DNA of 64,000 nt, from the NCBI GenBank assembly GCA_035575675.1, contig DATLXS010000182.1, forward strand, positions 880 through 64,879, given 5' to 3'. The first letter of the stretch is position 1; each line of letters begins with the position of its first letter. The position numbers were made by a program, and so were the translations under genes. The stretch is from Gemmatimonadales bacterium. Its GTDB lineage: Bacteria > Gemmatimonadota > Gemmatimonadetes > Gemmatimonadales > GWC2-71-9. The notes beneath the pieces were generated by a model. The model made no database searches. It was not told where the DNA came from and worked only from the letters and a program-made list of their open reading frames with translations. Of this stretch, positions 5,087 through 53,013 are shown in pieces.

Positions 5087-5854
5087 TTAGGTGAAGTCTG
5101 GAATTGCGGCGCGCGCGAACGTCACGCCCTCGACCCGCGTCGCGCCGGCCTGCTCGAGGGCACGCGCTGCCTCAGCGAGCGTCGCGCCGGTTGTAAAAAC
5201 ATCATCGACCAGGATTAATGCGAAACTCGAAATGTGGAATGCGAAATTGACGCTTCCAGGTCCATTTTGGATTTCGCATTTCGCATTTCGCACTTCAAAC
5301 GCCCCCGCCACGTTCGCCAGACGCGTGTCCGGTGTCAACGCCGTTTGCGTCGGCGTCTCCCGCGTGCGGACGAGCAGGTCGGGAAGCACGGGAATCCGCC
5401 ACTGTCGGGCCAGCGCGCGCGCCAGCATCGCACTCTGGTTGTAGCCGCGCGTGCGCAAGCGCTTTGTGGCGAGAGGAATCGGGATGAGCACCGACGCTCC
5501 GTCGGCCGGGGACTGCCGTTTCCCCATCGCGATTGCCAAGTCGTCGGCGATCCGCGGCAGGCCGCCGTACTTCAGGGCGTGGACGGCGGGCCGGGCGTAC
5601 GCATCGAGCCACACCGCGGATCGCACCGCTCTGAGCGCCTCCGGCCACGCAACGCACAGCCGGCAGGGGCCGAAGTGGGGCTCGGGCTGGCCACACCGCT
5701 CGCACCAGGGTGGCCGCACCGCGCGCCAGCGCTGCCGGCACAGCGGGCAGACGATCCTGGCGGCATCGCGGGCATTGAGCAGACCGTGACAAATGAGACA
5801 CTCTGCAGGAAGGAGAAGCTGTTCAACCGCGGAGCGCACGGACGACGGCAGCAC
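5087..5854 (-). CDS. ComF-family phosphoribosyltransferase-like protein carrying an in-frame repeat insertion
   Basis: 255 aa. N-terminal double zinc ribbon (CLICHG..CPLCRQ..CERCGQ..CRLC) and a C-terminal PRPP loop LILVDDVFTTGATL. The AT-rich repeat at 5217-5293 is read in frame as NAKCEIQNGPGSVNFAFHISSFA. Confidence 0.8.
   Translation of the reverse strand: MLPSSVRSAVEQLLLPAECLICHGLLNARDAARIVCPLCRQRWRAVRPPWCERCGQPEPHFGPCRLCVAWPEALRAVRSAVWLDAYARPAVHALKYGGLPRIADDLAIAMGKRQSPADGASVLIPIPLATKRLRTRGYNQSAMLARALARQWRIPVLPDLLVRTRETPTQTALTPDTRLANVAGAFEVRNAKCEIQNGPGSVNFAFHISSFALILVDDVFTTGATLAEAARALEQAGATRVEGVTFARAAIPDFT
5217..5293. repeat. Inverted pair of GCGAAAT-type heptamer arrays inside comF
   Basis: Left arm AATGCGAAACTCGAAATGTGGAATGCGAAAT (5217-5247), a 23-nt spacer, and right arm ATTTCGCATTTCGCATTTCGCAC (5271-5293). 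The arms are reverse complements at the unit level. The region is visibly AT-richer than its surroundings. Confidence 0.85.
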
Positions 5855-6647
5855 GCATCACCTCGACTGGTGCATCGGTGCCGGGAAAGAAGCGTTCGAA
5901 CGCGGCTGCCCCCTGCTGCACCAGCATCTCCCGGCCATCGGCGGCCTCGATGCCGCGCTCGCGCAGGGCGTGGACCCACCGCGTCTCCCCCGGCGCGTAG
6001 ACGAGGTCGAGTGCCCGCTGCACGCCGGGGATGTGATTGATGTCGACGGGCAGCGGATCGTGACCGGCAAGACCCAATGGAGTGGCGTTGATCGCGACGT
6101 CCACCTCGATCGGCCCGTTGGCGACCGTGGTGGGAACGCCAACGCCCGTCGCCCAGGCCGCGAACGCCGTCGCGCGCGCGCCGTCGCGCGAGCGCACGGA
6201 CAGCGTGACGCCGCGGTCCACCGCGCTCACCGCCGTCGCGCGCGCCGACCCCCCGGTTCCCACCACGAGCCACCGTTCCCCTTTTCGCGCCGCGCCGATT
6301 CGGTCGAGCGCCGCGGCGACGCCGGACACATCGGTATTGTCGCCGACGAGCGCTCCGTCCTCAGTCCAGAACGTATTGCACGCGCCGACGCGGGCGCAGA
6401 CATCCGTTTTCCGCGCGACGGATCCTTCGACTGCTTCTTTATGCGGAGCGGTGACGTTGCCGGCGCCCCCGGTCGCCGCCTGCATCGCGAGGAAGGCGGG
6501 CAGCGATTCGGGCGTGACGCGCAGCGCAACGTACACCGCGTCGAGGCCGAGCGCGCGACAGGCCGCGTTGTGCATCGCGGGGGAGAGGGAATGGGCCACC
6601 GGGTCACCGATGACCGTGAGCAGCCGCGTCTTAGCGCTGATCTCCAC
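5823..6647 (-). CDS. aroE: Shikimate dehydrogenase
   Basis: Contains VIGDPVAHSLSPAMHNAA, NVTAPHK and GDNTD motifs. The ORF-track start at 6716 overlaps the upstream gene by 86 nt. GTG at 6647 gives 274 aa. Confidence 0.85.
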   Translation of the reverse strand: MEISAKTRLLTVIGDPVAHSLSPAMHNAACRALGLDAVYVALRVTPESLPAFLAMQAATGGAGNVTAPHKEAVEGSVARKTDVCARVGACNTFWTEDGALVGDNTDVSGVAAALDRIGAARKGERWLVVGTGGSARATAVSAVDRGVTLSVRSRDGARATAFAAWATGVGVPTTVANGPIEVDVAINATPLGLAGHDPLPVDINHIPGVQRALDLVYAPGETRWVHALRERGIEAADGREMLVQQGAAAFERFFPGTDAPVEVMRAAVVRALRG

Positions 6648-7101
6648 GCTTGCTCTCAGCGACGAGCCGGTCGGCGACGGCGGCCGTGAGCGACTCGAGC
6701 TCCTGGCAGGTATCACGATAGATGCCGAGATCGCCGCCGAAGGGATCGCTCACTTCGTCGCCGCCCTGGCCGGCGTACTCGGCGAGCACGAACACGCGAC
6801 CCTCGCCCCCGAGCTCGTCGACGCGCGCGCGATGATGGCGGGCCATGGTGAGAATCAGGTCGGCGCGCTCGACCAGTTCCCGCGTCAACAGGCGGGCGCG
6901 GTGGCCGGACAGGTCGAGCCCGCGCTCGAGCCCCACGAGATACGCGCCTTCGGATGCAGGCGCGCCATCCCACGCCCCCGTCCCCGCCGACGACACGGTC
7001 ACCTCGATCCCGCGCTCGGTGAGCGCGCGCTCGAGCAGCGACGCGGCCAGCGGGCTGCGGCAAATATTGCCGGTGCAGACGAACAGGACGTGCTGGATCA
7101 T
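6631..7101 (-). CDS. Low-molecular-weight protein-tyrosine phosphatase family protein
   Basis: MIQHVLFVCTGNICRSPLA carries the CX5R(S) P-loop. ATG at 7101 forms an ATGA overlap with the upstream stop. The ORF-track extension to 7185 is Arg/Pro-rich and implausible. Confidence 0.85.
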   Translation of the reverse strand: MIQHVLFVCTGNICRSPLAASLLERALTERGIEVTVSSAGTGAWDGAPASEGAYLVGLERGLDLSGHRARLLTRELVERADLILTMARHHRARVDELGGEGRVFVLAEYAGQGGDEVSDPFGGDLGIYRDTCQELESLTAAVADRLVAESKRGDQR

Positions 7102-7751
7102 GGCGCGAGCCGCCCGACGGCGCGGCGGAGCTCGTGGACGCTGAGCGTGCCTTCCCGGACGATCTCCGCCCGCGGCCTGGTGCAATCAACCACGGTCGAG
7201 GGGGGCCGGTTTCCCAGCACGCCGCCATCGAGCACGAGCAGCTGTCCGGCCGCCACCGCCGGCGCGAAGTCGCGGGCGATCGCGTCAGCCCCGGGCCCCG
7301 GCGGCTGGCCGGGCAGATTCGCCGAGGTGGACGTGAGCGGCGAGCCGAGCGCCGCGACCAAGCGCGCGATCGCCTGGTGGGACGTCCACCGCACGGCGAT
7401 CCCGCCATCGGGTCCGCGCAACATGTCCGGCAACCGGCCGGAGCCGCCGGGCAGGACGAGTGTCAGCGGGCCGGGCCAGAATGCGCGCGCCAGAGCGTCG
7501 GCGGAGGCATTGAAGGCCAGGCCGTGCGCCTCAGCCATACCGCGGTCGCTGATCAACAACAGAAAGGGCTTGCTGGCCGACCGCCCTTTCATCGCGGCGA
7601 GCGCCGCGACATCCGCTTGCACCGCGCGTGAGCCGAGACCGTACACCGTCTCGGTGGGATACGCGAGCAAGCCTCCCTTTCCCATATGCGTCACCACCTG
7701 CGGGATCGCGGTGGCAACATCCGCATCCGATTGAAACGGAATCGGTTTCAA
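7098..7751 (-). CDS. tsaC: L-threonylcarbamoyladenylate synthase (YrdC/Sua5 family)
   Basis: 217 aa. YrdC-domain signature LAYPTETVYGLG and SANLPG. TTGA overlap with the ispD stop. Confidence 0.85.
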   Translation of the reverse strand: MKPIPFQSDADVATAIPQVVTHMGKGGLLAYPTETVYGLGSRAVQADVAALAAMKGRSASKPFLLLISDRGMAEAHGLAFNASADALARAFWPGPLTLVLPGGSGRLPDMLRGPDGGIAVRWTSHQAIARLVAALGSPLTSTSANLPGQPPGPGADAIARDFAPAVAAGQLLVLDGGVLGNRPPSTVVDCTRPRAEIVREGTLSVHELRRAVGRLAP

Positions 7752-8476
7752 CGCAATTCACGAGCGAGAGCCTCGGCGATCCGGAAGTCGTCGGCTGTGG
7801 TAATCTTGACATTGTACGGCGAATCGGGAATCAATTCCACCGGAAACCCTGCTCGCTCACAGACCTCGGCGTCGTCGCTCGGCGCGCCACCGTTCGCGGC
7901 CGCACCGAGCTGTGCGTAGGCGGCGTTCAACATTTGCCGCGGGAATCCCTGCGGCGTCTGGGCGCGCCAGATGCGTTCCCGGTCTACGGTCCGCGTAATG
8001 CGCGGTGTGGCGCGTGGCGCGCCCTCGCCAATCTCCTTCAATGTGTCGGACGTGGGCACCGCGGCGACGGCGCCGACGCCCGCGCGCGCGCGGGTGATCA
8101 CCGCATCGATCGTTTCGCGACTCACGAATGGCCGGGCCGCATCGTGGATCAGGATGATCGTGGCATCGGCGGGCAGCACGCGGAGCCCGGCGCGCACCGA
8201 GTCCACGCGCTGCGCGCCACCGGGTACGAAGCTCAGCCGCTCACCGCGGAGCTTGCCGAGCCAGTCGGGCGGGCGCTCCAGGTACCCGGGCGGCAGCGTC
8301 ACGACGACCTGACGGACTTCCGGATGCCCGATGAACGCCCGCAAGGCGCGCAGCAGCATCGGCACGCCGTGGATCGGACGGAATTGTTTCGGCTCGCCGG
8401 GGCCCGCCCGTACGCCGGCCCCCGCGGCGACGACGACGACGCCGACGTCAGGCTGCGAGGCGGCGGGTGAGCTCAC
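7748..8476 (-). CDS. ispD: 2-C-methyl-D-erythritol 4-phosphate cytidylyltransferase
   Basis: VVVVAAGAGVRAG..PKQF N-terminal motif and ILIHDAARP. The ORF-track start at 8728 lies inside radA. GTG at 8476 gives 242 aa. Confidence 0.85.
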   Translation of the reverse strand: MSSPAASQPDVGVVVVAAGAGVRAGPGEPKQFRPIHGVPMLLRALRAFIGHPEVRQVVVTLPPGYLERPPDWLGKLRGERLSFVPGGAQRVDSVRAGLRVLPADATIILIHDAARPFVSRETIDAVITRARAGVGAVAAVPTSDTLKEIGEGAPRATPRITRTVDRERIWRAQTPQGFPRQMLNAAYAQLGAAANGGAPSDDAEVCERAGFPVELIPDSPYNVKITTADDFRIAEALARELR

Positions 8477-9800
8477 CGATTCCCTCCAGCCCGATGATCT
8501 CGAGCTCGCCGGCCGCGCCGCGCGAGCGGGCGGACAAGAACACGCGGCGAAAGCCCTGGCGTGCGGCCTCGGCGAGGCGTCGCTCCACGCCCGCGACGGG
8601 GCGGATCTCGCCGCCGAGTCCCACCTCGCCCAGGAACAGTGCGTCGGCCGGCACGGGCCGGTCATGGACCGTCGAGACGAGGGCGGCGAGGATGGCGAGG
8701 TCGGTGGAGGGTTCGATGAGGCGCACACCTCCCGTGACGTTGACGAAGACGTCCAGGTTCCCGAACGGGAGGCCGCCGCGCCGCTCGAGCACCGCGAGCA
8801 GCAGCGCGAGGCGGCGATGATCGAGCCCAGTCGCCACGCGCTGCGGCGTCCCGAATCCCGCCTTCGAGGCGAGCGCCTGAATCTCGACCAGCATCGGGCG
8901 CGTGCCTTCCATCAAGGCCGTCACCGCGGAGCCGGAGGCCCCGGTGCTGCGGCCCGCGAGGAACGCCGCGGCGGGGTTGGCGACCGGCTCGAGCCCGCTC
9001 CCCGTCATCCGGAACACGCCGATTTCGTCCACCGACCCGAACCGGTTTTTCACGGCTCGCAGGATCCGGTGGTCGAGCGTCGTTTCACCTTCGAAATAGA
9101 GGACGGTGTCGACGATATGCTCGAGCGTCTTCGGGCCCGCGATGCCGCCGCCCTTGGTGACGTGTCCGACGAGCAGCACCGCGGGACCGGATTCCTTGGC
9201 GAACCGCATCAGGCGGGCAGCGCATTCGCGCACCTGGCCGACGTTGCCGGGCGCCCCTTCCAGCTCTTCGGTATAGGTGGTCTGCACCGAGTCGAGCAGC
9301 ACGACCTGTGATTGCAGCTGGGTCGCGTGATGCAGGATCGATTCGAGGCGCGTTTCGCCCAGGACATGAATGCCGCCGGCGTTCTCTTCCAGACGGTCAG
9401 CGCGCAGCCGCAGCTGGTCGGGGGACTCCTCGCCCGAGACGTACAGCGTCGAGACGCCCTGGTTCTCCAGGCGGGCGGCGCATTGCATCAGCAGCGTCGA
9501 CTTGCCGATGCCCGGCTCGCCGCCGACGAGCGTCACGGAGCCTGGCACGATGCCCCCGCCCAGGACGAAGTCGAACTCGGCGAGGCCCGTCCGCCAGCGC
9601 TGCGCGCTGGCCGTTGGAATGGTGGACAGTTGGACGGGAACGGCCCCAGTTTCATTCCGACCTTCCAACCTTCCGACATTCCGCCCGACAGGCTCCTCCG
9701 CCAGCGAATTCCACGCACCGCAACTATCGCAGCGCCCCCCCCACTTGGGCTGATCGGCCCCGCATTCCGTGCAACGAAAGACGGACTTGCCTTTAGACAC
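8448..9800 (-). CDS. radA: DNA repair protein RadA/Sms
   Basis: 450 aa. Zn ribbon CTECG..CDSCGAWN, Walker A GEPGIGKST, KNRFG motif, and a Lon-like C-terminal domain. Confidence 0.95.
   Translation of the reverse strand: MSKGKSVFRCTECGADQPKWGGRCDSCGAWNSLAEEPVGRNVGRLEGRNETGAVPVQLSTIPTASAQRWRTGLAEFDFVLGGGIVPGSVTLVGGEPGIGKSTLLMQCAARLENQGVSTLYVSGEESPDQLRLRADRLEENAGGIHVLGETRLESILHHATQLQSQVVLLDSVQTTYTEELEGAPGNVGQVRECAARLMRFAKESGPAVLLVGHVTKGGGIAGPKTLEHIVDTVLYFEGETTLDHRILRAVKNRFGSVDEIGVFRMTGSGLEPVANPAAAFLAGRSTGASGSAVTALMEGTRPMLVEIQALASKAGFGTPQRVATGLDHRRLALLLAVLERRGGLPFGNLDVFVNVTGGVRLIEPSTDLAILAALVSTVHDRPVPADALFLGEVGLGGEIRPVAGVERRLAEAARQGFRRVFLSARSRGAAGELEIIGLEGIGELTRRLAA
9613..9685. repeat. GGAAKG-type octamer array (possible inverted pair) inside the radA linker
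   Basis: C-rich arm TCATTCCGACCTTCCAACCTTCCGACATTCCGCC (9652-9685). Its reverse complement starts GGCGGAATGT, identical to the left end of the 35631 element. The upstream G-rich stretch GTTGGAATGGTGGACAGTTGGACGGGAACGG (9613-9643) is only partly complementary and may be native radA sequence. Confidence 0.4.
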
Positions 9801-19950: not shown

Positions 19951-19970
19951 TCATTGGACATTCTACATTC

Positions 19971-40363: not shown

Positions 40364-40776
40364 GCGGTAACAGGCGGGATTGGGCGGTAACGGGCGGTAG
40401 GTGGCGAACCCACCTGCCGCTTGTTTTTGTCGATTGCGGCATACAATCGCCACACCAACGTCCCTGCATGATTCCGCAGGCGTTCAATCGTTTGCCACGC
40501 CTCGTCTGACATCAACTCCAGGTCCTTGGCGAGTCTCAACGCGACAGATAACTCAGACAATGAACCGAGAGCGATGTCGAGGTAACGCCTGAACTCGGCG
40601 GATCCCCGTTTCGCCGATCCTTCTGCGATGTTGGCGACGACAGAGAAAGCCGCACGTCGGGACTGCGAAGTTAGTCCGTAGAGCTCATGCTTTGGGAAAG
40701 TCGCGGTAATCCGATAAACATCCAGAGTCAGTTCGTAAGAAAGCTTCCATGCTTGAAAGCGCTCATAGGGGAGCAT
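40360..40776 (-). CDS. Four-helix-bundle protein (23S rRNA intervening-sequence protein / Avd-like family)
   Basis: 138 aa. FQAWKLSYELTLDVY..FPKHELYGLTSQSRRAAFSVVANIAEGSAKRGSAEFRRYLDIALGSLSEL matches the TIGR02436/PF05635 pattern. The C-terminal tail (..GSPPTARYRPIPPVTA) is read from array A. Visibly lower G+C than its neighbours. Confidence 0.85.
   Translation of the reverse strand: MLPYERFQAWKLSYELTLDVYRITATFPKHELYGLTSQSRRAAFSVVANIAEGSAKRGSAEFRRYLDIALGSLSELSVALRLAKDLELMSDEAWQTIERLRNHAGTLVWRLYAAIDKNKRQVGSPPTARYRPIPPVTA
40363..40429 (+). repeat. GGCGGTAnnn 10-bp iteron array ending in a terminator hairpin (array A)
   Basis: GGCGGTAACA GGCGGGATTG GGCGGTAACG GGCGGTAGGT starts on the last base of the TAG stop. 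The last unit forms stem GCGGTAGGTGG-CGAAC-CCACCTGCCGC followed by TTGTTTTTG. Confidence 0.9.
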
Positions 40777-40844: not shown

Positions 40845-40878
40845 CCGCCTGTTGCCGCCTTTTGCCGCCCATTACCGT
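40845..40878 (-). repeat. 10-bp iteron array B (C-rich on + strand)
   Basis: CCGCCTGTTG CCGCCTTTTG CCGCCCATTA CCGTC. On the minus strand it reads TGA-GACGGTAATG GGCGGCAAAA GGCGGCAACA GGCGG, starting directly after the stop of the 40880-41680 gene. Confidence 0.85.
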
Positions 40879-40879
40879 C

Positions 40880-41680
40880 TCAGCGTCTCGACCAGACGAG
40901 TATCGCTCCGCAAGGACTCAAATAACCTGAGTACTGGACGGGTACACCCTCGGGTCCGGGATATACTTCCAGCGCTTCGATATTGAATGGGTTGACGAGG
41001 TCATCGAGGCTGAGTCCACCGCTAGCCGTGCCGCCGGGCTGCAGCAAGACACCGTCGAAAACGACGCTGGGGTTACATTTTCCGCGAAAGAACATCGTGT
41101 TCGCGGCTCGCATGGTGACTGTACATTGCAAGCCGGGACCGCCTTGTGAAGGGCCCCGCTGCTGTCCCCCGCAAGTGACGCGCACTCCAGACATCCCATG
41201 AAGTAGGTCAGTAAGGTGGAGGGGATCCCGCTTGTCGATTTCGTCGCGGGTGAGGAAATGTCCAAACCCCTCCTGTCTGCGTCTGTAAAACCCGGCGTCC
41301 GCCAAGTATGGCAACCGTCTCTCGATTTCCTTCGCTACGACCGTAACGGTGTCGAGAGTTATCGGGTTCGAAGGCAAGCTCAGCGATACGCGTGCCGTGA
41401 AGGCTGAACTGAAAAGAAAGGGTTTGCTTAGACTGATCGGATAACCGATCCTACTGATTAGCAGGCGATACTCACCGAGGCGCGGAATGCTGAAGGTGAA
41501 CTGACCGTCCGAGCTTGTGACTAGAGACTTCATCGCCGTGCCCGCGCTATCGAGGAGAAGGATGCGTGCACCGACGATGGGTTTTCCGGACACACTGTCC
41601 AGCACCGTCCCGGCGAGGACCTGTGCTTCAGCGGGATGCGCGAGCAATCCGAGTGTCAGCACGCAAACGGAGAGTCGCAT
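40880..41680 (-). CDS. CarboxypepD_reg-like + TonB-plug-like domain protein (no barrel)
   Basis: 266 aa. Signal peptide MRLSVCVLTLGLLAHPAEAQ, LAGTVLDSVSGKPIVGARILLLD..SDGQFTF..GEYRLLISRIGY, then plug-like LTDLLHGMSGVRV..VVFDGVLL..NIEALEVYPGP. Lower G+C than its surroundings. Confidence 0.6.
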   Translation of the reverse strand: MRLSVCVLTLGLLAHPAEAQVLAGTVLDSVSGKPIVGARILLLDSAGTAMKSLVTSSDGQFTFSIPRLGEYRLLISRIGYPISLSKPFLFSSAFTARVSLSLPSNPITLDTVTVVAKEIERRLPYLADAGFYRRRQEGFGHFLTRDEIDKRDPLHLTDLLHGMSGVRVTCGGQQRGPSQGGPGLQCTVTMRAANTMFFRGKCNPSVVFDGVLLQPGGTASGGLSLDDLVNPFNIEALEVYPGPEGVPVQYSGYLSPCGAILVWSRR

Positions 41681-41698: not shown

Positions 41699-41764
41699 GA
41701 AAAAGCGGCAGGGTCCGCAAACCCCTACCGCCCATTACCGCCTTGTACCGCCTGTTACCGCCTA
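41699..41764 (-). repeat. 10-bp iteron array C plus terminator hairpin downstream of rpmA
   Basis: The minus strand reads TAG-GCGGTAACAG GCGGTACAAG GCGGTAATGG GCGGTAGGG-GTTTGCGGA-CCCTGCCGC-TTTTT. The first 17 nt are identical to array A (TAGGCGGTAACAGGCGG) on the opposite strand. Confidence 0.9.
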
Positions 41765-42040
41765 GTTGTTCGCCGCCGCTTTCACTGCAGCCGGATACAC
41801 ACTCACCTGAAACCGCTGCTTGTTCTTGTGCTCGAACTTCACGTGACCGTCGATGGTCGTGAACAGCGTATCGTTCGCACCGCGGCGCACGTTCTTGCCG
41901 GGATGGAACTTGGTGCCGCGCTGAATGACGATGATGGTCCCGGCCCGCACGAATTCCCCGCCGAACCGCTTCACGCCGAGGTACTTCGGATTCGAGTCGC
42001 GCCCGTTGCGCGAGGAGCCGACGCCCTTCTTATGAGCCAT
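41762..42040 (-). CDS. rpmA: 50S ribosomal protein L27
   Basis: 92 aa. [39 protein letters not shown]. Confidence 0.97.
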
Positions 42041-44179: not shown

Positions 44180-44208
44180 AAGCTAGGAAAAGAGGAGACT
44201 TAGGTCAA
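44180..44208 (-). promoter_or_regulatory. Possible sigma-70-type promoter for the RNase E/G gene
   Basis: The minus strand reads TTGACC (44208-44203), a 17-nt spacer, then TAGCTT (44185-44180). It overlaps the acyl-CoA dehydrogenase stop and would give a ~150-nt structured leader. Confidence 0.25.
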
Positions 44209-45431
44209 TCGATCAGACCGCCGAGCAACTGCCGCGCAATCACGACGCGCTGGATCTCGCTCGTTCCCTCGCCGATCTCGCAGATCTTGGCGTCCCGCAT
44301 CATGCGCTCGACCGGGTACTCGGTGGTGTAGCCGTACCCGCCATGCAGCTGCACGGCCTTCGTTGTGGCGCGCATGCACAGCTCGGAAGCGTAGAGCTTG
44401 GCCATCGCTGCTTCCTTCTTGAACGGATGGCCCTGTTGTTTGAGCCAGGCGGCATGATATACGAGCTGCTTGGCGGCTTCGATCTCGGTCGCCATGTCGG
44501 CCAGCGCGAAATGCACGCCCTGGAAGCTCGCGATCGGCCGGCCGAACTGCTTGCGGGTGGACGTATACGCCAGACACTCGTCCAACGCTCCCTCGGCCAA
44601 CCCGAGCGACAGGGCGGCGATGCCGATCCGGCCGCCGTCGAGCGTGTGGAGAAACTGCCGGAAGCCGTTGTTCACTGGTCCGAGCACATTTTCCTTCGGG
44701 ACGATCGCGTCCTGAAAGATCAGCTCACGGGTGTCCGATGCCCGCCAGCCCAGCTTGTCTTCTTTTTTGCCTGACAGGACGCCGCGGTTCTTCGGTAGCT
44801 CGGCAGAGGACGCGTGGCCGATCCCCACGCGCTTCGCCTCGTCGAGGTCGCACGTGTCTTTGCTGACAATGAAGGCCGTGATCCCGTGCGTGCGTTTGGC
44901 GGTCGGATCGGTGCGCGCGGTGACGCAGAAGATCTCGCCGACGCCGGCGTGGGTGATGAAGATCTTCGAGCCGTTGAGGACGTAGTGGTCGCCTTTGTCG
45001 ACCGCGGTCGTCTTGGTGCCGCCCGCGTCCGAGCCCGCGCCCGGCTCCGTGAGGCCAAAACCGCCCAGGACCTTCCCGGGCGCGAGCAAGGGTACGAAGC
45101 GGCGCTTCTGCTCGTCGGTGCCGAAGTCCACGATCGGCGACGTGCCGAGCGTGGTGTGGGCGCTGACGGTGATGGCGTGACTCGCATCGACTTTCGCAAG
45201 CTCATGGATCACGGTGATGTAGGACAGATAATCCATCCCCGACCCGCCCAACTCCTCCGCCCACGGAATCCCGAACAGCCCGAGCTCCGCCATCCGTTTG
45301 ATGTTGTCCCAGGGGAAGCGGCTGTCGAGATCGTATTGGCGGGCGGTGGGTTTGACGACGTTCCGGGCGAAGTCTCGCACCATCTCGCGAACCTGGAGAT
45401 GGTGGTCGGAGAAGTAGAGGCTATCGTGCAT
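44205..45431 (-). CDS. Acyl-CoA dehydrogenase
   Basis: 408 aa. ACAD pattern ..[10 protein letters not shown].., ..QFG.PIASFQ.. and C-terminal ..YEGTSEIQ-like ([15 protein letters not shown]). Confidence 0.9.
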
Positions 45432-45443: not shown

Positions 45444-45487
45444 GACGGTAAGGGACGGTAAAGAAGCGACGGTAAAGGACGGTAAGG
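45444..45487. repeat. GACGGTAAnG iteron array, single arm
   Basis: GACGGTAAGG GACGGTAAAGAAGC GACGGTAAAG GACGGTAAGG fills the recQ-stop to acyl-CoA-dehydrogenase-start spacer. C-rich in the sense of both flanking genes. Confidence 0.85.
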
Positions 45488-45488
45488 G

Positions 45489-46616
45489 TCACACCTCGCC
45501 GAAGTGTTGGAGAATGATCGCGCGGTGGTTCCGGCGCGCCTCGACGTACCGCCGCATCGCGGGCGCAATGTTGCCCCACGCGAGATCCTCCCTTCGCCAC
45601 AACACCAGACATTCGGCTGCCCTGCCGTCCCTGCCGCCCCTGCCGGCCTCTTGGTAGTAGGCCTCCAACGTGGGCGGGGGACCCCAATGCAGCACCTGCC
45701 GAACGTCCGGCTTGTCGATGCCCATGCCGAACGCGCTCGTCGCGACGATCACACGCACCTGATCGGTGAGGAACGCCCGTAATACACGCCGGCGCATGCC
45801 GGGACTGAGACCGGCGTGATAGGGGGCCGCGCGCACACTCGACCGCAGGAGCGCGCGCGCGACGAGCTCGGTCAGGCGGCGGGTTGGCGTGTAAATGAGC
45901 GACGCTCCTGCCCCGGTGCGGACGCGCTGGCGGATCGCCGCGAAGCGCTCGCGATCATCTCGCACGCGACAGACACGCAAGTCGAGATTGGGACGATCGA
46001 ACGACGTCACCACGACCTCGGCATCTGGCATGCGCAGTACGTGCAGGATGTCGGTGCGAGCGGCCGGAGTCGCGCTTCCCGTCAGGGCAATCGTCGGGGG
46101 CCGTCCGAGCGCCGCGCGGAACACGCCGAGGCGCCGGTAGACCGGCCGGAATTCGTTGCCCCATTCGGCGATGCAGTGCGCCTCGTCGATCGCGAGCAGC
46201 GACACCCGCGTGCCGGCTGCTACGAGGCGTCGCGTCAGCGATGCCAATCGCTCCGGCGCGCAGTACAGCAGCGCGAGCCGCCCCGCGGTCGCCGCGTCCA
46301 GGATGGTGCGCCGCTGGGTGGCATCGAGCTGGCTGTTCACGTAGGCGGCCGCGATGCCCCGGCGTCGCAGCGCGCCGACTTGATCCTGCATCAGCGAGAT
46401 CAAGGGCGACACGACGAGCGTCAGGCCGGCGTCGAGCAGCGCGGGGACCTGGTAGCAGAGCGACTTCCCCGCCCCAGTGGGGAGTACGGCGAGGACGTTC
46501 CGGCCGGCGAGCAGCGGGCCCAGCACTCTGAGCTGATGGACGCGGAAGCGGGCGTGACCGAACCGTTCCTTGAGGATTGTGCGCGCGGCCTCGAGTCCCA
46601 CGGTGCAGGTCGGCAT
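45489..46616 (-). CDS. RecQ-family helicase core, lacking Zn-binding/WH/HRDC domains
   Basis: 375 aa. Motifs LAVLPTGAGKS, DEAHC, TATA-like LTGSATP and YYQEAGRGGRDG. Ends ..AIILQHFGEV* exactly where RecQ proteins begin the Cys4 zinc cluster. Confidence 0.8.
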   Translation of the reverse strand: MPTCTVGLEAARTILKERFGHARFRVHQLRVLGPLLAGRNVLAVLPTGAGKSLCYQVPALLDAGLTLVVSPLISLMQDQVGALRRRGIAAAYVNSQLDATQRRTILDAATAGRLALLYCAPERLASLTRRLVAAGTRVSLLAIDEAHCIAEWGNEFRPVYRRLGVFRAALGRPPTIALTGSATPAARTDILHVLRMPDAEVVVTSFDRPNLDLRVCRVRDDRERFAAIRQRVRTGAGASLIYTPTRRLTELVARALLRSSVRAAPYHAGLSPGMRRRVLRAFLTDQVRVIVATSAFGMGIDKPDVRQVLHWGPPPTLEAYYQEAGRGGRDGRAAECLVLWRREDLAWGNIAPAMRRYVEARRNHRAIILQHFGEV

Positions 46617-46687: not shown

Positions 46688-48826
46688 ATGCCTCCTCTAT
46701 TCTTCGCGACACTCATGCTGGTACAAACTGTGATCTATCCTCCCGCGCGCAAAGACGACGTTGTCGACGACTACCACGGGACCAAGGTTGCCGACCCCTA
46801 CCGCTGGCTCGAGGACGTCGACGCGCCGGAAACCCGCGGCTGGGTGGAAGCCGAGAATCGCGTCACATTCGCCTATCTCGAGCAGATCCCCGAGCGCGAG
46901 CGCATTCGGCGGCGGCTGACGGAATTGTGGGACTATCCGAAATACGGCGCGCCGTTCCAGAAGGGCGGACGCTACTTCTTCTTCAAGAATTCAGGTCTCC
47001 AGAACCAGGCGGTCCTGTACACGCAAAGCGCGCTCACCGCCGAGCCCGAAGTCCTGCTCGATCCCAACACACTGTCGGCGGACGGCACCGTCGCGCTGTC
47101 GATCCTCGCCTTCGCCGAGGACGGCAGGACGATGGTCTACGGCACGTCGGGGAGCGGCTCGGACTGGCAGGAATTCCGCGTGCGTGATGTCGCGACTCGG
47201 CAGGACCGGCCTGATCACCTGAAATGGATCAAGTTCTCGAGCGCGGCATGGACGCACGACGGCGCCGGATTCTTTTACAGCCGCTATCCAGAGCCCGCGC
47301 CGGGCGCCGATCCGCTGCTCGAGGTCAATCACAACCAGAAGGTCTATTACCACAAGCTGGGCACCGACCAGTCCACCGACCGCCTGGTGTACGAACGGCC
47401 CGATCATCCCGACTGGGGCTTCGGCGTCGAAGTGAGCGCCGACGGTCGCTACGCCGTCTACACGGTCTGGCTGGGCACCGACCGCCGCAATCGCGTCTAC
47501 TATCAAGACCTGGGCGACGCCAGGCATCCGCGGCTCGACGCACCCGTCGTCCGCTTGCTCGATGCCTTCGACGCGGCCTACGGTTTCGTCGGCAACACGG
47601 GCCCCGTCTTCTATTTCCAGACCGATAACGGCGCGCCGCGTGGCCGCATCGTCGCCGTCGATGTTCGTCATCCCGCACCGATCGCCTGGAAAGAAGTCGT
47701 GCCGCAGGCGCCGGACGTGATTGAAGGCTCGCAGATTGTCCACAACACGTTTGTCGTGCGCTACCTCCACGACGCGTACTCGCAGCTGCGCCTCTTCGCG
47801 CTCGACGGCAAGCCGGCCGGCGACGTCGGGCTGCCGACGCTGGGCTCGATCGTGCAGGTGACCGGCGAGCCTCGCGACACGGAGATGTTCTACGCGTTCA
47901 CGTCGTTCCTGTATCCGACCACGATCTTCCGGCACGACTTCACGACCGGCACCTCCACCGTCTTCAAGGCACCGGAGATTGCCTTCGACCCCGCGAAGTA
48001 CGAAACGGTGCAGGTGTTCTACCACAGCAAGGACGGGACGCGGGTTCCGCTGTTCCTGACCTACAAGAAGGGCGTAAAGCAGGATGGCTCGAACCCGACG
48101 TACCTGTACGGCTACGGCGGCTTCAATGTCAACATGACGCCGGGCTTTTCGATCGGCGTGCTCGCGTGGCTCGAGATGGGCGGCGTGTACGCGCAGGCGG
48201 TGCTGCGCGGCGGATCGGAGTACGGGGAAGAGTGGCATCAGGCGGGGATGCTCGACCGCAAGCAAAACGTGTTCGACGATTTTATCGCCGCCGCGGAGTA
48301 TCTGATCGCCGCGCGCTACACGGCACCGCCCAAACTGGCGATCGGCGGGGGCTCGAATGGCGGGTTGCTGATCGGTGCCGTGTTGAATCAGCGGCCCGAA
48401 TTGTTCGGCGCCGCCCTGCCGGCCGTCGGCGTGATGGACATGCTGCGCTTCCACAAGTTCACGATCGGCTGGGCGTGGGTGACCGAATACGGCTCGGCCG
48501 ACAGCGTCGCGCAGTTCCCGTTTCTGCTGCGGTACTCGCCGATCCACAATATGAAGCCGGGGACGCACTATCCCGCGACCTTGATCACGACCGCCGATCA
48601 CGACGACCGCGTGGTGCCGGGGCACTCGTTCAAATACGCGGCGACGCTCCAGACGGCGCAGGGCGGCCCCGAGCCGGTGCTGATACGGATCGAGACCAAG
48701 GCCGGCCACGGCGCCGGCAAGCCGACCGCCAAAGTGATCGAGGAGCAAACCGATCGCTGGGCGTTCCTCGTTCACACGCTCCACATGCAGCTACCGGCAC
48801 AGACTTCGTCCGCGCCGAGGCCCTAG
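46688..48826 (+). CDS. Prolyl oligopeptidase (S9A)
   Basis: 712 aa from ATG 46688. DPYRWLED N-terminus, catalytic GGSNGGLL, and ..DDRV.P.HS.K.. The ORF-track start at 46577 adds an implausible Arg/Cys-rich leader. Confidence 0.9.
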   Translation: MPPLFFATLMLVQTVIYPPARKDDVVDDYHGTKVADPYRWLEDVDAPETRGWVEAENRVTFAYLEQIPERERIRRRLTELWDYPKYGAPFQKGGRYFFFKNSGLQNQAVLYTQSALTAEPEVLLDPNTLSADGTVALSILAFAEDGRTMVYGTSGSGSDWQEFRVRDVATRQDRPDHLKWIKFSSAAWTHDGAGFFYSRYPEPAPGADPLLEVNHNQKVYYHKLGTDQSTDRLVYERPDHPDWGFGVEVSADGRYAVYTVWLGTDRRNRVYYQDLGDARHPRLDAPVVRLLDAFDAAYGFVGNTGPVFYFQTDNGAPRGRIVAVDVRHPAPIAWKEVVPQAPDVIEGSQIVHNTFVVRYLHDAYSQLRLFALDGKPAGDVGLPTLGSIVQVTGEPRDTEMFYAFTSFLYPTTIFRHDFTTGTSTVFKAPEIAFDPAKYETVQVFYHSKDGTRVPLFLTYKKGVKQDGSNPTYLYGYGGFNVNMTPGFSIGVLAWLEMGGVYAQAVLRGGSEYGEEWHQAGMLDRKQNVFDDFIAAAEYLIAARYTAPPKLAIGGGSNGGLLIGAVLNQRPELFGAALPAVGVMDMLRFHKFTIGWAWVTEYGSADSVAQFPFLLRYSPIHNMKPGTHYPATLITTADHDDRVVPGHSFKYAATLQTAQGGPEPVLIRIETKAGHGAGKPTAKVIEEQTDRWAFLVHTLHMQLPAQTSSAPRP

Positions 48827-48837
48827 GAGACGATCGC

Positions 48838-49581
48838 ATGCCCAAGGTGCACTGTTCGCTGTGTAACGCTCCCGTGGAGGGCCGCACGCTCGCGTCCCCG
48901 CAGAAGTTGGAAAACCGCATCATCGACCTGATAAAAAAAGACCGGCCGGAATGGGAAGGGACGCGTGGCATCTGCGCCAACTGCCTCGAGACCTATCGCG
49001 CCAAGAAGTTCGTGACCTATCTCGAAGCCGAGTATCAGAAGCTGTCGGAGCTCGAGCACTCAGTGGTCTCGAAGATCACGCGCCGCGGGCGGGTCAGTAA
49101 GCTCGTGCATCAGGACATGGAGACGTCGATGACGTTCGGCGAGCACGTGGCCGACAAGGTGGCGCAGTTTGGGGGAAGCTGGCGCTTCATCGGGCTCTTT
49201 GGAGGCATCCTGCTCGTGTGGATGGTGGTGAACGCCTGGGTGCTCGCGACCCATCCCTTCGACCCCTACCCCTTCATTCTCTTGAACCTCGTGCTGTCGA
49301 CGCTCGCGGCGCTCCAGGCGCCGGTGATCATGATGAGCCAGAACCGCCAGGCGCACAAAGACCGGATGCAGGCGAATCAGGATTACGAGATCAACTTGAT
49401 GGCGGAGATTGAAATCCGGGATCTACACGACAAGCTGGATTCGCTGCGATTCAAGCAATGGCACGAGCTGTGGCACATTCAAAAGCGGCAAATCGAACTG
49501 CTCGAGCATCTCTGCGCGAAGGGTGCGGATCCCGAGCTTAAGGCTCCCGCGCCGAGTCCCTATGTGCCCCCTGAACTCTGA
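48838..49581 (+). CDS. DUF1003-family membrane protein with N-terminal zinc ribbon
   Basis: 247 aa. AGGAGA RBS at 48825-48830. CSLC..CANC ribbon, then FGGSWRFIGLF..PYPFILLNLVLS..APVIMMSQNRQ..D (DUF1003 core). Confidence 0.75.
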   Translation: MPKVHCSLCNAPVEGRTLASPQKLENRIIDLIKKDRPEWEGTRGICANCLETYRAKKFVTYLEAEYQKLSELEHSVVSKITRRGRVSKLVHQDMETSMTFGEHVADKVAQFGGSWRFIGLFGGILLVWMVVNAWVLATHPFDPYPFILLNLVLSTLAALQAPVIMMSQNRQAHKDRMQANQDYEINLMAEIEIRDLHDKLDSLRFKQWHELWHIQKRQIELLEHLCAKGADPELKAPAPSPYVPPEL

Positions 49582-49652
49582 CGGTAGGCAAGGCGACGGT
49601 AGATGAAACGACGGTAGGTAAGGCGACGGTAGATAAAACGACGGTAGATACC
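49579..49652 (+). repeat. GACGGTAG 15-bp iteron array (left arm)
   Basis: T-GACGGTAGGCAAGGC GACGGTAGATGAAAC GACGGTAGGTAAGGC GACGGTAGATAAAAC GACGGTAGATACC. It begins inside the TGA stop of the DUF1003 gene and shows an alternating 30-bp higher-order repeat. Confidence 0.9.
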
Positions 49653-49692
49653 ATTTTGAGTTGTGGTTGATCGCCTCCCGAGATACTCCCTC

Positions 49693-50061
49693 ATGCTCGC
49701 GCATGAGAGAATCCACGCTTGGAAGTTGTGTCACGAGCTGGTGCTGGCTGTATACGATGCAACGACATCGTTTCCTAAACATGAACTCTACGGGTTGACC
49801 TCCCAAGCTCGGCGCGCCGCTTTTTCTGCGGCGGTCAACATTGTCGAAGGCTCCGCCAAGCGTGGCCCCGCCGAATTTCGACGATTCCCGGATATGAGTG
49901 TTGGTTCGCTTGCGGAGCTCGCCTACACGTTGCGTGTGGCGAAGGACCTGGGGTTCATTGATGACGAGCGCTGGCGGTCATTAGAACAACGTCGAAGACA
50001 AGCAGGCATGATGACGTGGAGACTCTACTCGGCGGTTGCGAGAGCGGCGAGAAGAGTGTGA
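49693..50061 (+). CDS. Four-helix-bundle protein (23S rRNA intervening-sequence protein / Avd-like family), paralog 2
   Basis: 122 aa from ATG 49693 (MLAHERIHAWKLCHELVLAVY..FPKHELYGLTSQARRAAFSAAVNIVEGSAKRGPAEFRRF). Aligns end to end with the 40360-40776 protein at roughly 60% identity by eye. Confidence 0.85.
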   Translation: MLAHERIHAWKLCHELVLAVYDATTSFPKHELYGLTSQARRAAFSAAVNIVEGSAKRGPAEFRRFPDMSVGSLAELAYTLRVAKDLGFIDDERWRSLEQRRRQAGMMTWRLYSAVARAARRV

Positions 50062-50063
50062 CA

Positions 50064-50132
50064 CTTACCGTCGCCTTATCTACCGTCCTTTACCGTCGTA
50101 TTATCTACCGTCGTATTATCTACGGTCGTCTC
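50064..50132 (-). repeat. CTACCGTC iteron array (right arm, inverted)
   Basis: CTTACCGTC GCCTTATCTACCGTC CTTTACCGTC GTATTATCTACCGTC GTATTATCTACGGTC. The array ends 1 nt before the TCA (minus-strand TGA stop, 50133-50135) of the 50133-50450 gene. Confidence 0.9.
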
Positions 50133-50450
50133 TCACCCCGCATCTTTCCAGTCAATCGCATAGCTGCGCCCACATTCGTGGCACTTGGCGTCCTTGCGAT
50201 TCTCGGGGACGACGGTCCGCGCGTGACATCCGGGGCACACCAGGTGTGGCTGGCGCACCACACTCCAGGCGCTGGGTCGCTCGCTCCGAATCTCGAGATC
50301 CGCTTTTGGGATCCGGATCTCCACGTGGTGCACATCCAGCACCACGAAGTCCTTGGGCGGATTTTCGACGACGCGATACCAGGCGCCGCGCCGGAGTCCC
50401 TGTCCTTCCGCACGATCACCGCGACTACGAGCCCAACCGATGTCAGCCAT
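50133..50450 (-). CDS. Hypothetical protein with C-terminal zinc ribbon
   Basis: 105 aa from MADIGW (ATG 50450, 8-nt overlap with the upstream GroES-like gene). C-terminal CPGC..(13)..CHEC. Confidence 0.45.
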   Translation of the reverse strand: MADIGWARSRGDRAEGQGLRRGAWYRVVENPPKDFVVLDVHHVEIRIPKADLEIRSERPSAWSVVRQPHLVCPGCHARTVVPENRKDAKCHECGRSYAIDWKDAG

Positions 50451-50808
50451 GCTTCCCTCGCACAAGGACGAGAATCGCCGCCTGTGGCACGACGAGATAC
50501 GTCTTACCCTCGAATGTGATTTCTACGGCCGCTTTCCGGAAAAAGAGCGCGTAGTCTCCCGCCTCCGCCTGCGTCGGCAAATACTTCACCTCAGCGCCGT
50601 GAATCTTCCACGGCTCCTCGTCCATGCTCGCCGGCTCGGGCATCGGGGTGCCGGGGCCGGTGGCGACGATGCGGCCGCCCTGCACCTGGCGGCCCTCGAT
50701 GGCGGAGGGAGGGAGATAGAGTCCGACGTTCGTGCGCTCCTCCCCCTCCTCGGGCGAGATGAGCACACGATCGCCGACGACGATCAAGCGCTTCGGGTCT
50801 TCCGGCAC
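50443..50808 (-). CDS. GroES/Cpn10-like protein (atypical, with insert)
   Basis: 121 aa. LIVVGDRVLISPEEGEERTNVGLYLP..A....QGGRIVATGPG ... GDYALF ... YLVV....ILV follows the GroES beta-barrel pattern. There is no groEL nearby. Confidence 0.55.
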   Translation of the reverse strand: MPEDPKRLIVVGDRVLISPEEGEERTNVGLYLPPSAIEGRQVQGGRIVATGPGTPMPEPASMDEEPWKIHGAEVKYLPTQAEAGDYALFFRKAAVEITFEGKTYLVVPQAAILVLVRGKHG

Positions 50809-50882: not shown

Positions 50883-50909
50883 TTGACTTGAGGGGTCCGT
50901 TTTTATAAC
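50883..50909 (+). promoter_or_regulatory. Possible sigma-70-type promoter for the 50945 gene
   Basis: TTGACT (50883-50888), a 15-nt spacer, then TATAAC (50904-50909), 36 nt upstream of ATG 50945. The spacer is shorter than optimal. Confidence 0.25.
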
Positions 50910-50944
50910 AATGTGCCCGCCGACCTCCCTCTCCGGAGCCCTGA

Positions 50945-52168: not shown

Positions 52169-52914
52169 AGCGCGTGGTCCTGGCGCTCAGCCTCCTGGCG
52201 GTCGCGTGCGCGCCGAAAGCTGGTGGGCCGCCGCCGCGGTCGACGCTGGTGGTGGGACTCGATGTCTCGGGCTCGTTCCGCAACAGCGGGCGCTTCGACG
52301 ACGCGATGCGCTACGCCGCGTTGTACATCTACGGGCACGTCAACGGCCTCGGCGGTCTCAAGCAGGCGACCGACGTCTTTGTCGGATCGCTCGGCGGCGA
52401 CGTCGTGGGCCAGCCCAAGACATTCCACCCGATTCAGGACTTGGGCGGCAAGACGCCGGCGGAGATCGAGCGCGACCTGCGCGCCTGGTTCCCTGACGTC
52501 GATGCCCTCACCGACTTCAACGCCTTTTTCCAGCGCGTGGCGGTGCACATCAAGCGCCAGAACCTGGTGCTGGCACCGCTCAATATCGTGATGTTCTCGG
52601 ACGGCCTGCCCGATCTTCCGGGCGCGCGCCGCATGCAGCCCAAAGAGCTCTATGGGAAGGTTGATCTGAGTCCGATCGAGTACCTGTCGCGCAACGTGAC
52701 GGTCCGGCTCCTGTACGCCGACCCACCGATCGCGCAGAACTGGGAAAGGCTCGTCCCCCGCAATCGCGTGAAGATCTGGACGCAGGACGCCCAGGTCATG
52801 GATGGGTGGCACCGTCACGAGGTGGCGGGTGTCCCGATGGAGCGGCAGGACTCGCTCTGGAGTTGGACGGAGCAGATTGTCGACTTCCGCGTCCGCCGCG
52901 GCAAAATTCTCTAA
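52165..52914 (+). CDS. vWA-like (MIDAS-motif) lipoprotein
   Basis: 249 aa. ATGA overlap with the membrane protein gene. Lipobox LLAVAC. LVVGLDVSGSF (DxSxS) and IVMFSDGLPD are characteristic of von Willebrand A domains. Confidence 0.6.
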   Translation: MKRVVLALSLLAVACAPKAGGPPPRSTLVVGLDVSGSFRNSGRFDDAMRYAALYIYGHVNGLGGLKQATDVFVGSLGGDVVGQPKTFHPIQDLGGKTPAEIERDLRAWFPDVDALTDFNAFFQRVAVHIKRQNLVLAPLNIVMFSDGLPDLPGARRMQPKELYGKVDLSPIEYLSRNVTVRLLYADPPIAQNWERLVPRNRVKIWTQDAQVMDGWHRHEVAGVPMERQDSLWSWTEQIVDFRVRRGKIL

Positions 52915-52918
52915 AAAC

Positions 52919-53013
52919 GACGGTAAGGGACGGTAGGTGAAACGACGGTAAGGGACGGTAAACCCTTACCGTCGTTTACCGTCGTAGTACCTACCGTCGC
53001 ATTACCTACCGTC
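52919..53013. repeat. Back-to-back inverted GACGGTA arrays with no cargo ('empty' hairpin)
   Basis: GACGGTAAGG GACGGTAGGTGAAAC GACGGTAAGG GACGGTAAAC | CCTTACCGTC GTTTACCGTC GTAGTACCTACCGTC GCATTACCTACCGTC. It sits between convergent genes, and the TAG stop of the methyltransferase (53006-53008) lies inside the array. Confidence 0.9.

Follow-up and report, generated by a model that had tools for sequence, protein, structure and literature searches.

Proteins of the family PF05635 (TIGR02436) were found in intervening sequences of ribosomal RNA (rRNA) genes about thirty years ago, and the family has remained large and without an assigned function since that discovery. A single Xanthomonas query alone retrieved more than 3,800 PF05635/TIGR02436 proteins at E <= 1e-20, and we know of no catalytic activity in the family. 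Here we describe two cassettes built around PF05635 genes in a 64,000-nucleotide (nt) stretch of a Gemmatimonadales genome (contig DATLXS010000182.1; about 66% G+C), the whole of which is called the window below. In each cassette the gene is enclosed by inverted arrays of short tandem repeats. The closest described system is the 23S rRNA intervening sequence of Coxiella burnetii, in which the open reading frame (ORF) for the family member S23p is preceded by two or three tandem GACAGAT heptamers, the number of which varies among strains (PMC4990558). RNase III cuts this sequence at the first heptamer repeat (PMC4990558), which provides an experimental precedent for the explanation favored below. 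The structure of the Xanthomonas S23p protein is a homopentameric toroid (PMC4990558).

Near the ends of genes, abundant short tandem repeats are known from cyanobacteria, Xanthomonas, and Beggiatoaceae, but they have been neither explained nor connected to a gene. Rehm et al. (2015) reported 186 GGGAATC arrays in Xanthomonas campestris and similar GGGGA(C/T)T arrays in Nostoc; these are intergenic and most often have four units (PMC4692102). They either follow a stop codon within 50 nt, on the sense strand, or closely precede a start codon, on the antisense strand, and 70-75 convergent pairs occur per genome, at sites that are conserved between species while the copy number varies (PMC4692102). 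Neither their function nor an associated gene was known in that study (PMC4692102). Arrays of TAACTGA units, described by MacGregor in Beggiatoaceae, cyanobacteria, and Bacteroidetes, contain stop codons in all frames in one orientation, and a factor that binds them has been proposed (PMC4679880). The results below join repeats of this type to the PF05635 family.

An earlier note on the window, made from its sequence alone, had described them as iteron arrays. However, both pairs of arms enclose ORFs that belong to PF05635 ("23S rRNA-intervening sequence protein") and TIGR02436 ("four helix bundle protein"), and the arrays are thus the ends of a gene cassette. The two genes, here named IVP1 (cassette A) and IVP2 (cassette B), encode proteins that are 59% identical, and both are homologous to the solved structure 2GSC of Xanthomonas XCC0516. 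IVP1 matches PF05635 at E=1.7e-30, TIGR02436 at E=8.3e-29, and 2GSC at E=1e-22, while IVP2 matches PF05635 at E=5.6e-27, TIGR02436, and 2GSC at E=1.8e-19. Including the gene, a cassette of the window spans about 0.55 kb. It occupies exactly the space between the stop codons of a converging pair of host genes, and the first repeat unit supplies or overlaps the stop. That the arrays represent arms and remnants of PF05635 cassettes is well supported by the evidence from the window and from orthologous loci given below.

The proposal that the arrays can fold into long imperfect hairpins is also supported. The inverted repeats in the window are 42-52 nt long and 85-86% complementary; in cassette A, the arm at 40363-40412 pairs with 41724-41775 to form a 52-nt inverted repeat with 85% complementarity. 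When cassette B was folded as one RNA, its arms were paired (-239.5 kcal/mol, z -5.1). No sigma-70 promoter match was found by a scan within both cassettes, and the protein matches no defense system in PADLOC. The coordinates of all features are given in Table 1.

Table 1. Arms, genes, hairpins, and other repeat arrays of the window. TRF, Tandem Repeats Finder; aa, amino acids. Positions are those of the window.
Feature	Position	Strand	Units or content	TRF array (period, nt)	Contacts and remarks
G-rich arm, cassette A	40363..40412	+	GGCGGTAA-type 10-nt units	40362-40406 (10/20)	First unit overlaps TAG (40361-63) of amidohydrolase gene 39155..40363
Small hairpin, cassette A	40393..40432	+	Last G unit and a complementary unit, then GCCGCTTGTTTTT		Read from sequence
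IVP1, PF05635/TIGR02436 four-helix-bundle gene	40360..40776	-	138-aa ORF		
Inner arm, cassette A	40845..40879	-	G-rich on minus strand	40845-40869 (10)	Directly after TGA of ORF 40880..41680 (stop at 40880, 0-5 nt away), upstream of IVP1; from TRF and sequence
266-aa ORF	40880..41680	-	CarboxypepD_reg and Plug (Pfam)		N-terminal part of TonB-dependent receptor
Terminator-like hairpin and T-run after L27-side arm	41700..41725	-	GGGGTTTGCGGACCCT GCCGCTTTTT		Found by scan
Outer arm, cassette A	41724..41764	-	G-rich on minus strand	41726-41764 (10/20)	First unit overlaps TAG (41762-64, minus strand) of ribosomal protein L27 gene (41762..42040; Pfam)
Lone arm	45444..45487	+	Four GACGGTAA units	45444-45488 (10/14)	
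G-rich arm, cassette B	49579..49652	+	Five GACGGTAG cores, 15-nt period	49580-49650 (15/30)	First core overlaps TGA (49579-81) of DUF1003 gene 48166..49581
IVP2, PF05635/TIGR02436 gene	49663..50061	+	Listed ORF of 132 aa		
C-rich arm, cassette B	50064..50132	+		50065-50129 (15/25)	3 nt past IVP2 stop; ends 5 nt before stop of convergent zinc-ribbon gene 50133..50465 (-); stop at 50133 is 0-5 nt from the arm
Gene-less hairpin	52919..53013		Four GACGGTAR units, 4-nt loop, four complementary units	52966-53014 (10/15)	Between convergent stops 52912-14 (0-5 nt from an arm) and 53006-08 (TAG of a repeat unit)
Hairpin in ComF-like gene	5217..5293	-	7-nt GCGAAAT units		In frame inside ComF-like phosphoribosyltransferase gene 5087..5854 (-)
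Doubtful member in RadA gene	9610..9685 (earlier note, 9652-9685)	-	Weak 8-nt repeat	TRF score 44	In linker of RadA (8448..9800, -)
Two-unit array	19958..19971	-			Directly after stop of ORF 19971..21923 (-), in 20-nt gap between convergent stops
Hairpin in M16 peptidase gene	35631..35722	+	8-nt units GGAATGAT / TTCCATCA; encodes ...MMERWTGLLLLLSIIPSFIPSFHLSA		Separate unit family

Within the window, TRF reports short-period arrays at every position for which the earlier note had listed one. The core motif GRCGGTAR occurs 31 times, compared with an expectation of 4.35 +/- 2.27 from 100 dinucleotide-preserving shuffles (largest count, 11), and 28 of the 31 matches fall within seven arrays. The claim of at least ten copies of one family stands in part: seven arms carry GRCGGTAR units (two cassettes, one extra arm, one hairpin, and one lone arm), to which two hairpins with units of other families are added. 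A comparison of the sequence with the list of ORFs placed each array in contact with stop codons, either overlapping or 0-5 nt apart, and confirmed that the arms are G-rich in the sense strand of the gene that they follow. Every GRCGGTAR unit of the window does contain a stop codon. The arrays consist of head-to-tail units with periods of 7-15 nt, as compared with the unique spacers of about 25-50 nt in CRISPR, which agrees with the view that they are not CRISPR. Iterons of a replication origin (17-22 nt direct repeats beside a Rep initiator gene at a single origin) were ruled out by the several chromosomal loci, the inverted arrangement, and the lack of a Rep domain among the annotated neighbors. 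As for the description of the family as unrecognized, no Rfam family matches any of the arrays, but the arrays agree in architecture with 23S rRNA intervening sequences that carry an S23p ORF, and in their habits with the GGGAATC/GGGGAYT arrays. The sole Rfam match in the window is a tRNA gene on the minus strand (22984-23066).

Cassette A has several features of its own. The small hairpin at its amidohydrolase end looks like an intrinsic terminator of the amidohydrolase transcript, judging from its stem and the letters that follow. A mirror-image terminator-like site was found on the minus strand by scan, and the loci L047 and L009 share the layout of the small hairpin. IVP1 has no stop codon of its own and reads through the arm as far as the CTAG that it has in common with the amidohydrolase stop. 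Its ORF crosses the terminator-like hairpin and the arm, which gives the protein a 22-residue tail (KNKRQVGSPPTARYRPIPPVTA). The 266-aa ORF lies between the inner and outer arms in a region of low GC content (0.584); the orthologous cassette in L009 lacks this TonB-receptor-like ORF. CTAG bounds cassette A on both sides (40360-40363 and 41761-41764), and these copies may represent either a target or a duplication. No such CTAG duplication is seen at cassette B, the gene of which likely starts with the ATG at 49693, as judged from an alignment of orthologs.

The association between gene and arrays extends far beyond the window. A scan of one genome per species found 80 loci that encode relatives of the window protein, including 60 from Gemmatimonadota and others from Planctomycetota, Chloroflexota, Acidobacteriota, Bacteroidales, the candidate phyla radiation (CPR), a cyanobacterium, Verrucomicrobiales, and a gammaproteobacterium. 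One protein encoded by L001 is 98% identical to one from the window, and its nearest relatives suggest that the window stems from a soil member of Gemmatimonadales. Short-period arrays flank the gene on both sides in 69 of the 80 loci, with inverted copies in 59, and the two arms are mostly 410-475 bp apart. Within 260 nt of the gene, 17.7% of the bases belong to arrays, compared with 2.0% elsewhere in the same loci. The units of Gemmatimonadota are 8-16 nt long (for example, GACGGTAAGG, GGCGGTAGAG, GGCGGTCA, and GGACGGCC), and those of other phyla are heptamers such as CTGAAGC, AGCTAAC, CAGCAAT, and CCAATCA; acidobacterial PF05635 genes are flanked by GGTAACT units. In the protein tree, clades correspond to repeat-unit types, and paralogs in the same genome keep separate units. 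The gene occurs in both orientations at two orthologous sites (the window versus L009, and L011/L012 versus L008/L013/L016). In the Bacteroidales locus L071, 22 copies (2841-2998) and 29 copies (3350-3583) of CCAATCA flank the gene in direct orientation, an exception to the inverted rule.

The sites occupied in other phyla are also distinctive. In planctomycetes (L064, L068, L069, L072, L075, and L080), the gene is found in antisense orientation between tRNA-Asn and tRNA-Gly, inside clusters of 10-19 tRNA genes, and heptamer arrays are found around the PF05635 gene as well as around other tRNA genes of these clusters. The homolog of Xanthomonas XCC0516 (L081-L084) is located between accB and accC. 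These two genes normally form one operon, into which the Xanthomonas PF05635 gene is inserted. The Xanthomonas gene is bracketed by GGGAATC-type units, with GGGAATCGGGAGTGGAGAATGGGGAATCGG upstream and the complement CCCACTCCCCATTCTCGACTCCCTATTCCC downstream, and is therefore flanked by the very repeat that is dispersed through that genome. The upstream array overlaps the start of the gene. Thus, across phyla, the gene is regularly bracketed by inverted arrays.

The polarity of the arms is strict in Gemmatimonadota: as in the window, the G-rich arm is 5' of the C-rich arm in all 45 loci with a clear skew, with none in the reverse order. Rho prefers C-rich, G-poor RNA with YC dimers, and the C-rich arm, with YC dimers at a spacing of 10-15 nt, may, on either strand, provide the far end of the cassette with a candidate Rho-utilization site. 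Transcripts would then cross the gene and end before running antisense into the converging gene, which would explain the order of G-rich first and C-rich last. Besides the polarity itself, the GC skew of the C-rich arms (about -0.4 to -0.7) and their position directly after the stop codon of the gene are in line with this explanation. However, pairing with the G-rich arm would hide such a site, and the heptamer cassettes of other phyla have no such skew (four G-first and one C-first among 12 inverted pairs). We consider a role in Rho loading improbable.

Evidence for the cassette as a unit comes from the junction of the DUF1003 and zinc-ribbon genes, which is occupied by cassette B in the window. 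A metagenome scan with the DUF1003 protein, the stop of which meets the G-rich arm, found 80 orthologous loci (56-99% identity), and 71 of these, from soil metagenomes, are informative in that they include the end of the gene. The presence/absence polymorphism at an orthologous intergenic site that the earlier note had proposed to look for is evident. The junction is empty in 46 of the 71 loci, with neither an array nor a PF05635 gene, and filled in 22, where a G-rich arm that begins within the stop codon (TGAcggtag...) is followed by the gene and, if the contig reaches that far, by a C-rich arm. Two further loci (L105 and L106) have a remnant only, consisting of one G unit and two C units without a gene, and in a distant relative (L154) the site is occupied by a hairpin of an unrelated 7-mer, again without a gene. 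In the empty loci (within L087-L164), DUF1003 and the converging zinc-ribbon gene share the palindrome CTAG, in which their stop codons overlap. Filled loci are scattered across the tree of the host gene, and the cassette and host are incongruent. For example, L135 and L150 have 0.94 identity in the host gene compared with 0.67 in the cassette gene, whereas L128 and L149 have 0.80 in the host gene and 0.94 in the cassette gene. In addition, the gene subtype co-varies with the arm period (10 or 15 nt). Based on the filled/empty pattern, this incongruence, and the co-variation of subtype and period, the arrays belong to the cassette and not to the host site.

Purifying selection acts on the cassette gene, whose median dN/dS is 0.095 compared with 0.084 for the host DUF1003 gene. 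The cassette gene is truncated in four of the 22 filled loci. Decay at this junction is seen at several stages (L131, L135, L118, L161-L163, L105, and L106), namely a frameshift in the gene, loss of its stop, truncation, and remnant hairpins. Taken together, the cassette is gained, exchanged, and lost as a whole at stop-codon junctions, and gene-less hairpins are left when it decays. Gene loss is probably also the origin of lone arms, which would account for the other arrays of the window.

These loci also bear on the possibility that the hairpins came first, as the lineage's own two-way terminators between converging genes, with the PF05635 gene inserted into their loops later. Gene-less hairpins do fill gaps between converging stops, as at 52919-53013, and some terminator-like hairpins are built of repeat units. 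However, none of the 46 empty orthologous loci has a hairpin or an array; wherever arrays are present, they accompany the gene or are evident remnants of it (the filled-type TGA is retained in L105 and L106), and the unit type follows the gene clade. The terminators-first explanation is largely refuted at the DUF1003 junction, and we regard it as highly unlikely overall.

The arms at the same junction have a regular anatomy. Among 133 unit periods, 36 are of 10 nt and 95 are of 15 nt, with almost none between, and the number of units per arm ranges from one to 10 with a mode of 3-4. The core GACGGTA is constant while the spacers vary, a constancy that stems partly from the use of the core in the search. 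The pattern of G-tracts is not conserved at this junction, unlike the core, which is relevant to the idea that four G-tracts fold into a G-quadruplex in DNA or RNA and affect transcription or stability, a role put forward earlier for GGGAATC arrays, the PF05635 gene being incidental. The GACGGTAAGG arrays do have GGG every 10 nt with 7-nt loops (L004 and L002), and in Xanthomonas four units are the commonest number and oligonucleotides form G-quadruplexes in vitro (PMC4692102). However, GGG tracts are missing from the 15-nt units of the window and of its closest relatives, heptamers elsewhere (AGCTAAC, CCAATCA, and CAGCAAT) are not G-rich, and empty sites lack any array. There is little to recommend quadruplex formation as the explanation.

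The explanation that we favor, and consider fairly probable on the combined comparisons, is that the element is a compact cassette with arms that act like those of a 23S rRNA intervening sequence. In read-through RNA from either side, the two arms would pair into a long imperfect duplex, which may serve as a substrate of the RNase III type and as a two-way barrier (insulator) between converging transcripts. An insertion would be harmless wherever cutting of the RNA is harmless, such as in rRNA helices, between tRNAs, between cistrons (accB/accC), and after stop codons; this RNA-cutting explanation fits all the sites found because transcript cutting is harmless at each. The stop codons in the units would close any host reading frame that enters, such that the cassette can sit with zero intergenic space, and the arrays may lengthen and shorten by replication slippage within each arm. 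This suggests how insertions could be tolerated at sites without intergenic space.

Several observations weigh against cutting of an arm duplex as the explanation. The arm pairing shows no strand asymmetry of G:U versus A:C pairs (38 loci sense, 40 antisense), and the spacers do not co-vary between arms, as 11-mer sharing is 0.16 between arms of the same cassette and 0.12 between different loci. The duplex itself is therefore not visibly the selected feature. Each arm is homogenized separately, and the right arms of the window clade amplify ATAATAC, which is absent from the left arms. As far as can be read from the arms, these patterns show that each evolves by local slippage and that the core is conserved as a sequence, more than as a pairing partner, which weakens the case for selection on the duplex alone and leaves room for a factor that reads the unit. 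A hairpin and T-run also follow the G-rich arm directly in cassette A and L047, and such terminators would end many host transcripts before the second arm. Moreover, gene-less arrays inside coding sequences could not be cut without destroying the mRNA. Finally, no nuclease or transposase was seen, and no consistent target-site duplication was found at the 22 filled junctions.

Some factor probably reads the conserved unit core, and its conservation hints at sequence-specific protein binding. The encoded protein, with a homopentameric Xanthomonas relative, is the obvious candidate for such a reader. The main rival to the RNA-cutting explanation centers on this protein: a pentameric PF05635 protein would putatively bind the tandem units with one conserved core per subunit and a free spacer, similar to TRAP on GAG repeats, on single-stranded RNA or DNA. 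The arrays at its own gene would then serve autoregulation, the gene-less arrays after stop codons or before start codons would form a regulon for mRNA ends, stability, or translation, and the hairpin would be a by-product. Consistent with such binding, GACGGTA is near-invariant, subject to the search effect mentioned above, while the gene has diverged to 60% identity, the synonymous divergence of the host is saturated, and the spacers vary. The quantized periods and the lack of compensatory changes between arms point in the same direction, as do the tracking of the protein clade by the unit type, with distinct units for paralogs of one genome, and the lone and gene-less arrays near IVP2, which bear the unit of IVP2. 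The arms of the window have 4-5 cores each, the Xanthomonas protein is a homopentamer (PMC4990558), and arrays in Xanthomonas most often comprise four units (PMC4692102). Terminators straight after the G-rich arm would also leave this arm single-stranded in host mRNAs.

On the other side, the expectation from a pentamer of five units per arm was not borne out by the counts at the DUF1003 junction. Simple co-inheritance would likewise make unit and protein co-vary, the Xanthomonas arrays are found on either strand relative to their neighbor genes (PMC4692102), and the inverted arrangement and fixed polarity are left unexplained. We therefore regard a ring on the repeats as possible but not likely. 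The G-quadruplex, terminators-first, and Rho-loading explanations are ranked below it because of the contrary points given for each. A broader version is that PF05635 proteins are putative sequence-specific readers of short tandem repeats, with each paralog recognizing its own 7-15-nt unit and being encoded between inverted arrays of that unit. The STRR, GGGAATC, TAACTGA, and GRCGGTAR families would then be dispersed binding or mobilization sites, and the 23S intervening sequence would be one landing place among others. This broader version is a tentative proposal that we would not back over the RNA-cutting explanation. If true, long-unexplained repeat families of bacteria would be dispersed sites of PF05635 proteins, with Xanthomonas as a tractable organism.

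The lone arm lies between the stop of a DEAD/Helicase_C gene (45489..46616, minus strand) and the start of an acyl-CoA dehydrogenase gene (44205..45431, minus strand); as the earlier note had it, this is a single arm, with no partner arm and no fold. The hairpin at 52919-53013 (-65.1 kcal/mol as RNA, z -8.5) is the cassette structure minus its gene.

The arrays that the earlier note had regarded as diverged versions do not share the G-N-C-G-G-T-A-R core, as their units are GGAATGAT and GCGAAAT. Moreover, three of the four lie inside genes and not in the intergenic gaps to which the note had assigned them; the fourth, at 19958-19971, sits between stop codons. The GCGAAAT hairpin is real (z -6.9) and lengthens the stretch from the GAF to the LVDDV motif of the ComF-like protein by about 15 residues. 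The span between these motifs is 26 residues in the window protein, compared with a median of 12.5 in homologs and nine in a homolog with 72% identity. The nearest representative ComF homolog (P0241) has an insert of the same length at the same place with a different sequence. The hairpin at 35631-35722 is also real (z -4.9). It starts 4 nt past the stop of one M16 peptidase gene, within the 5' end of the M16 gene that follows (35624..37738), and the hydrophobic core of the signal peptide predicted for the latter (LLLLLSIIPSFIPSFHLSA) is encoded by the C-rich arm. The TGA of the upstream M16 gene overlaps the ATG of the downstream one. A unit similar to GGAATGAT, TTGGAAKG, makes up the arms of another PF05635 cassette, that of L047, which belongs to the same metagenome-assembled genome as L001, the closest relative of the window.

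The remaining two arrays are less clear. The array in RadA folds weakly (z -2.4), and its membership in the family is doubtful. An in-frame insertion was rejected for this array, as the linker has the same length in homologs. By eye, the RadA linker (coding GRNVGRLEGRN) matches the G-rich arm of the L047 cassette (2880-2912) at 19 of 20 nt. The two-unit array at 19958-19971 is a possible minimal remnant, judging from its units and position, and is statistically weak.

Among other known systems, REP/REPIN sequences are dispersed, hairpin-forming, gene-less copies at gene ends, and the RAYT gene, which encodes a Y1 transposase, is flanked by inverted copies of them. The outline of one gene flanked by inverted copies of a genome-dispersed repeat is the same as that of the window cassettes. 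However, REP units are imperfect palindromes, whereas the units here are non-palindromic and tandem, and the flanked gene belongs to PF05635. With no palindromic unit of about 20-40 nt and no Y1 transposase flanked by units, the arrays were not assigned to this class. As for miniature inverted-repeat elements, terminal inverted repeats are present, no duplication is consistent at the 22 filled junctions, and CTAG is found at the ends of cassette A and at empty sites. The Avd protein of diversity-generating retroelements has a homologous four-helix-bundle fold, but the likeness is weak and below cut-off (PHROG Avd, E=4.7e-08; bAvd, 19 bits versus a cut-off of 40; NF033474, 24 versus 80). The cassette has no further ORF and no room for a reverse transcriptase or a template repeat. 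No reverse transcriptase was found among the annotated neighbors, the rest of the window not having been searched for one specifically, and a diversity-generating retroelement was rejected. The palindromic elements of Rickettsia are in-frame selfish insertions in genes, similar to the in-frame hairpin of the ComF-like gene but with an unrelated sequence and without its tandem units. The STRR heptamers of cyanobacteria are comparable to the window arrays as short intergenic tandem units.

The TAACTGA arrays are likewise abundant intergenic short tandem units located at the ends of ORFs, with occasional in-frame copies inside ORFs. However, in Beggiatoa they are mostly found just upstream of start codons and are almost never inverted, and no associated gene is known (PMC4679880). 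The arrays of Xanthomonas and Nostoc are more similar to those of the window in their position within 50 nt after a stop codon, the G-rich sense strand, the convergent pairs, and the presence of about four units. They differ in having a 7-nt unit of another sequence, in contrast to the 10- or 15-nt GRCGGTAR units here, and in the quadruplex potential that is stressed there and is not conserved here. A literature search for PF05635 or S23p with flanking tandem repeats found only the Coxiella heptamers, and no paper linking GGGAATC- or TAACTGA-type repeats to PF05635; most subscription journals were outside this search, and an earlier description is possible. The link between the PF05635 family and families of short tandem repeats, and the coming and going of the whole cassette at stop-codon junctions, appear to be new here.

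The comparison with the 23S rRNA intervening sequences that carry an S23p ORF (in Leptospira, Coxiella, and others) is the closest. Both have a PF05635 protein encoded in a loop, flanking inverted repeats that are predicted to form a long stem, and a patchy distribution that suggests mobility. In Coxiella, tandem heptamers of variable number lie at the stem base that RNase III cleaves (PMC4990558), and tandem units are found in the window as well. The differences lie in location, composition, and fate. The intervening sequences are located in helix 25 or 45 of the 23S rRNA, whereas the window cassettes lie between the stops of protein genes (amidohydrolase, L27, DUF1003, and zinc-ribbon), and their arms consist wholly of 10- or 15-nt tandem units. 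The Coxiella S23p gene is decaying, in contrast to the clear purifying selection on the cassette gene here, and gene-less derivatives are dispersed in the genome, some of them inside ORFs. The architecture is thus already known from the 23S rRNA intervening sequence, and the form found in the window is a lineage-specific variant of it.

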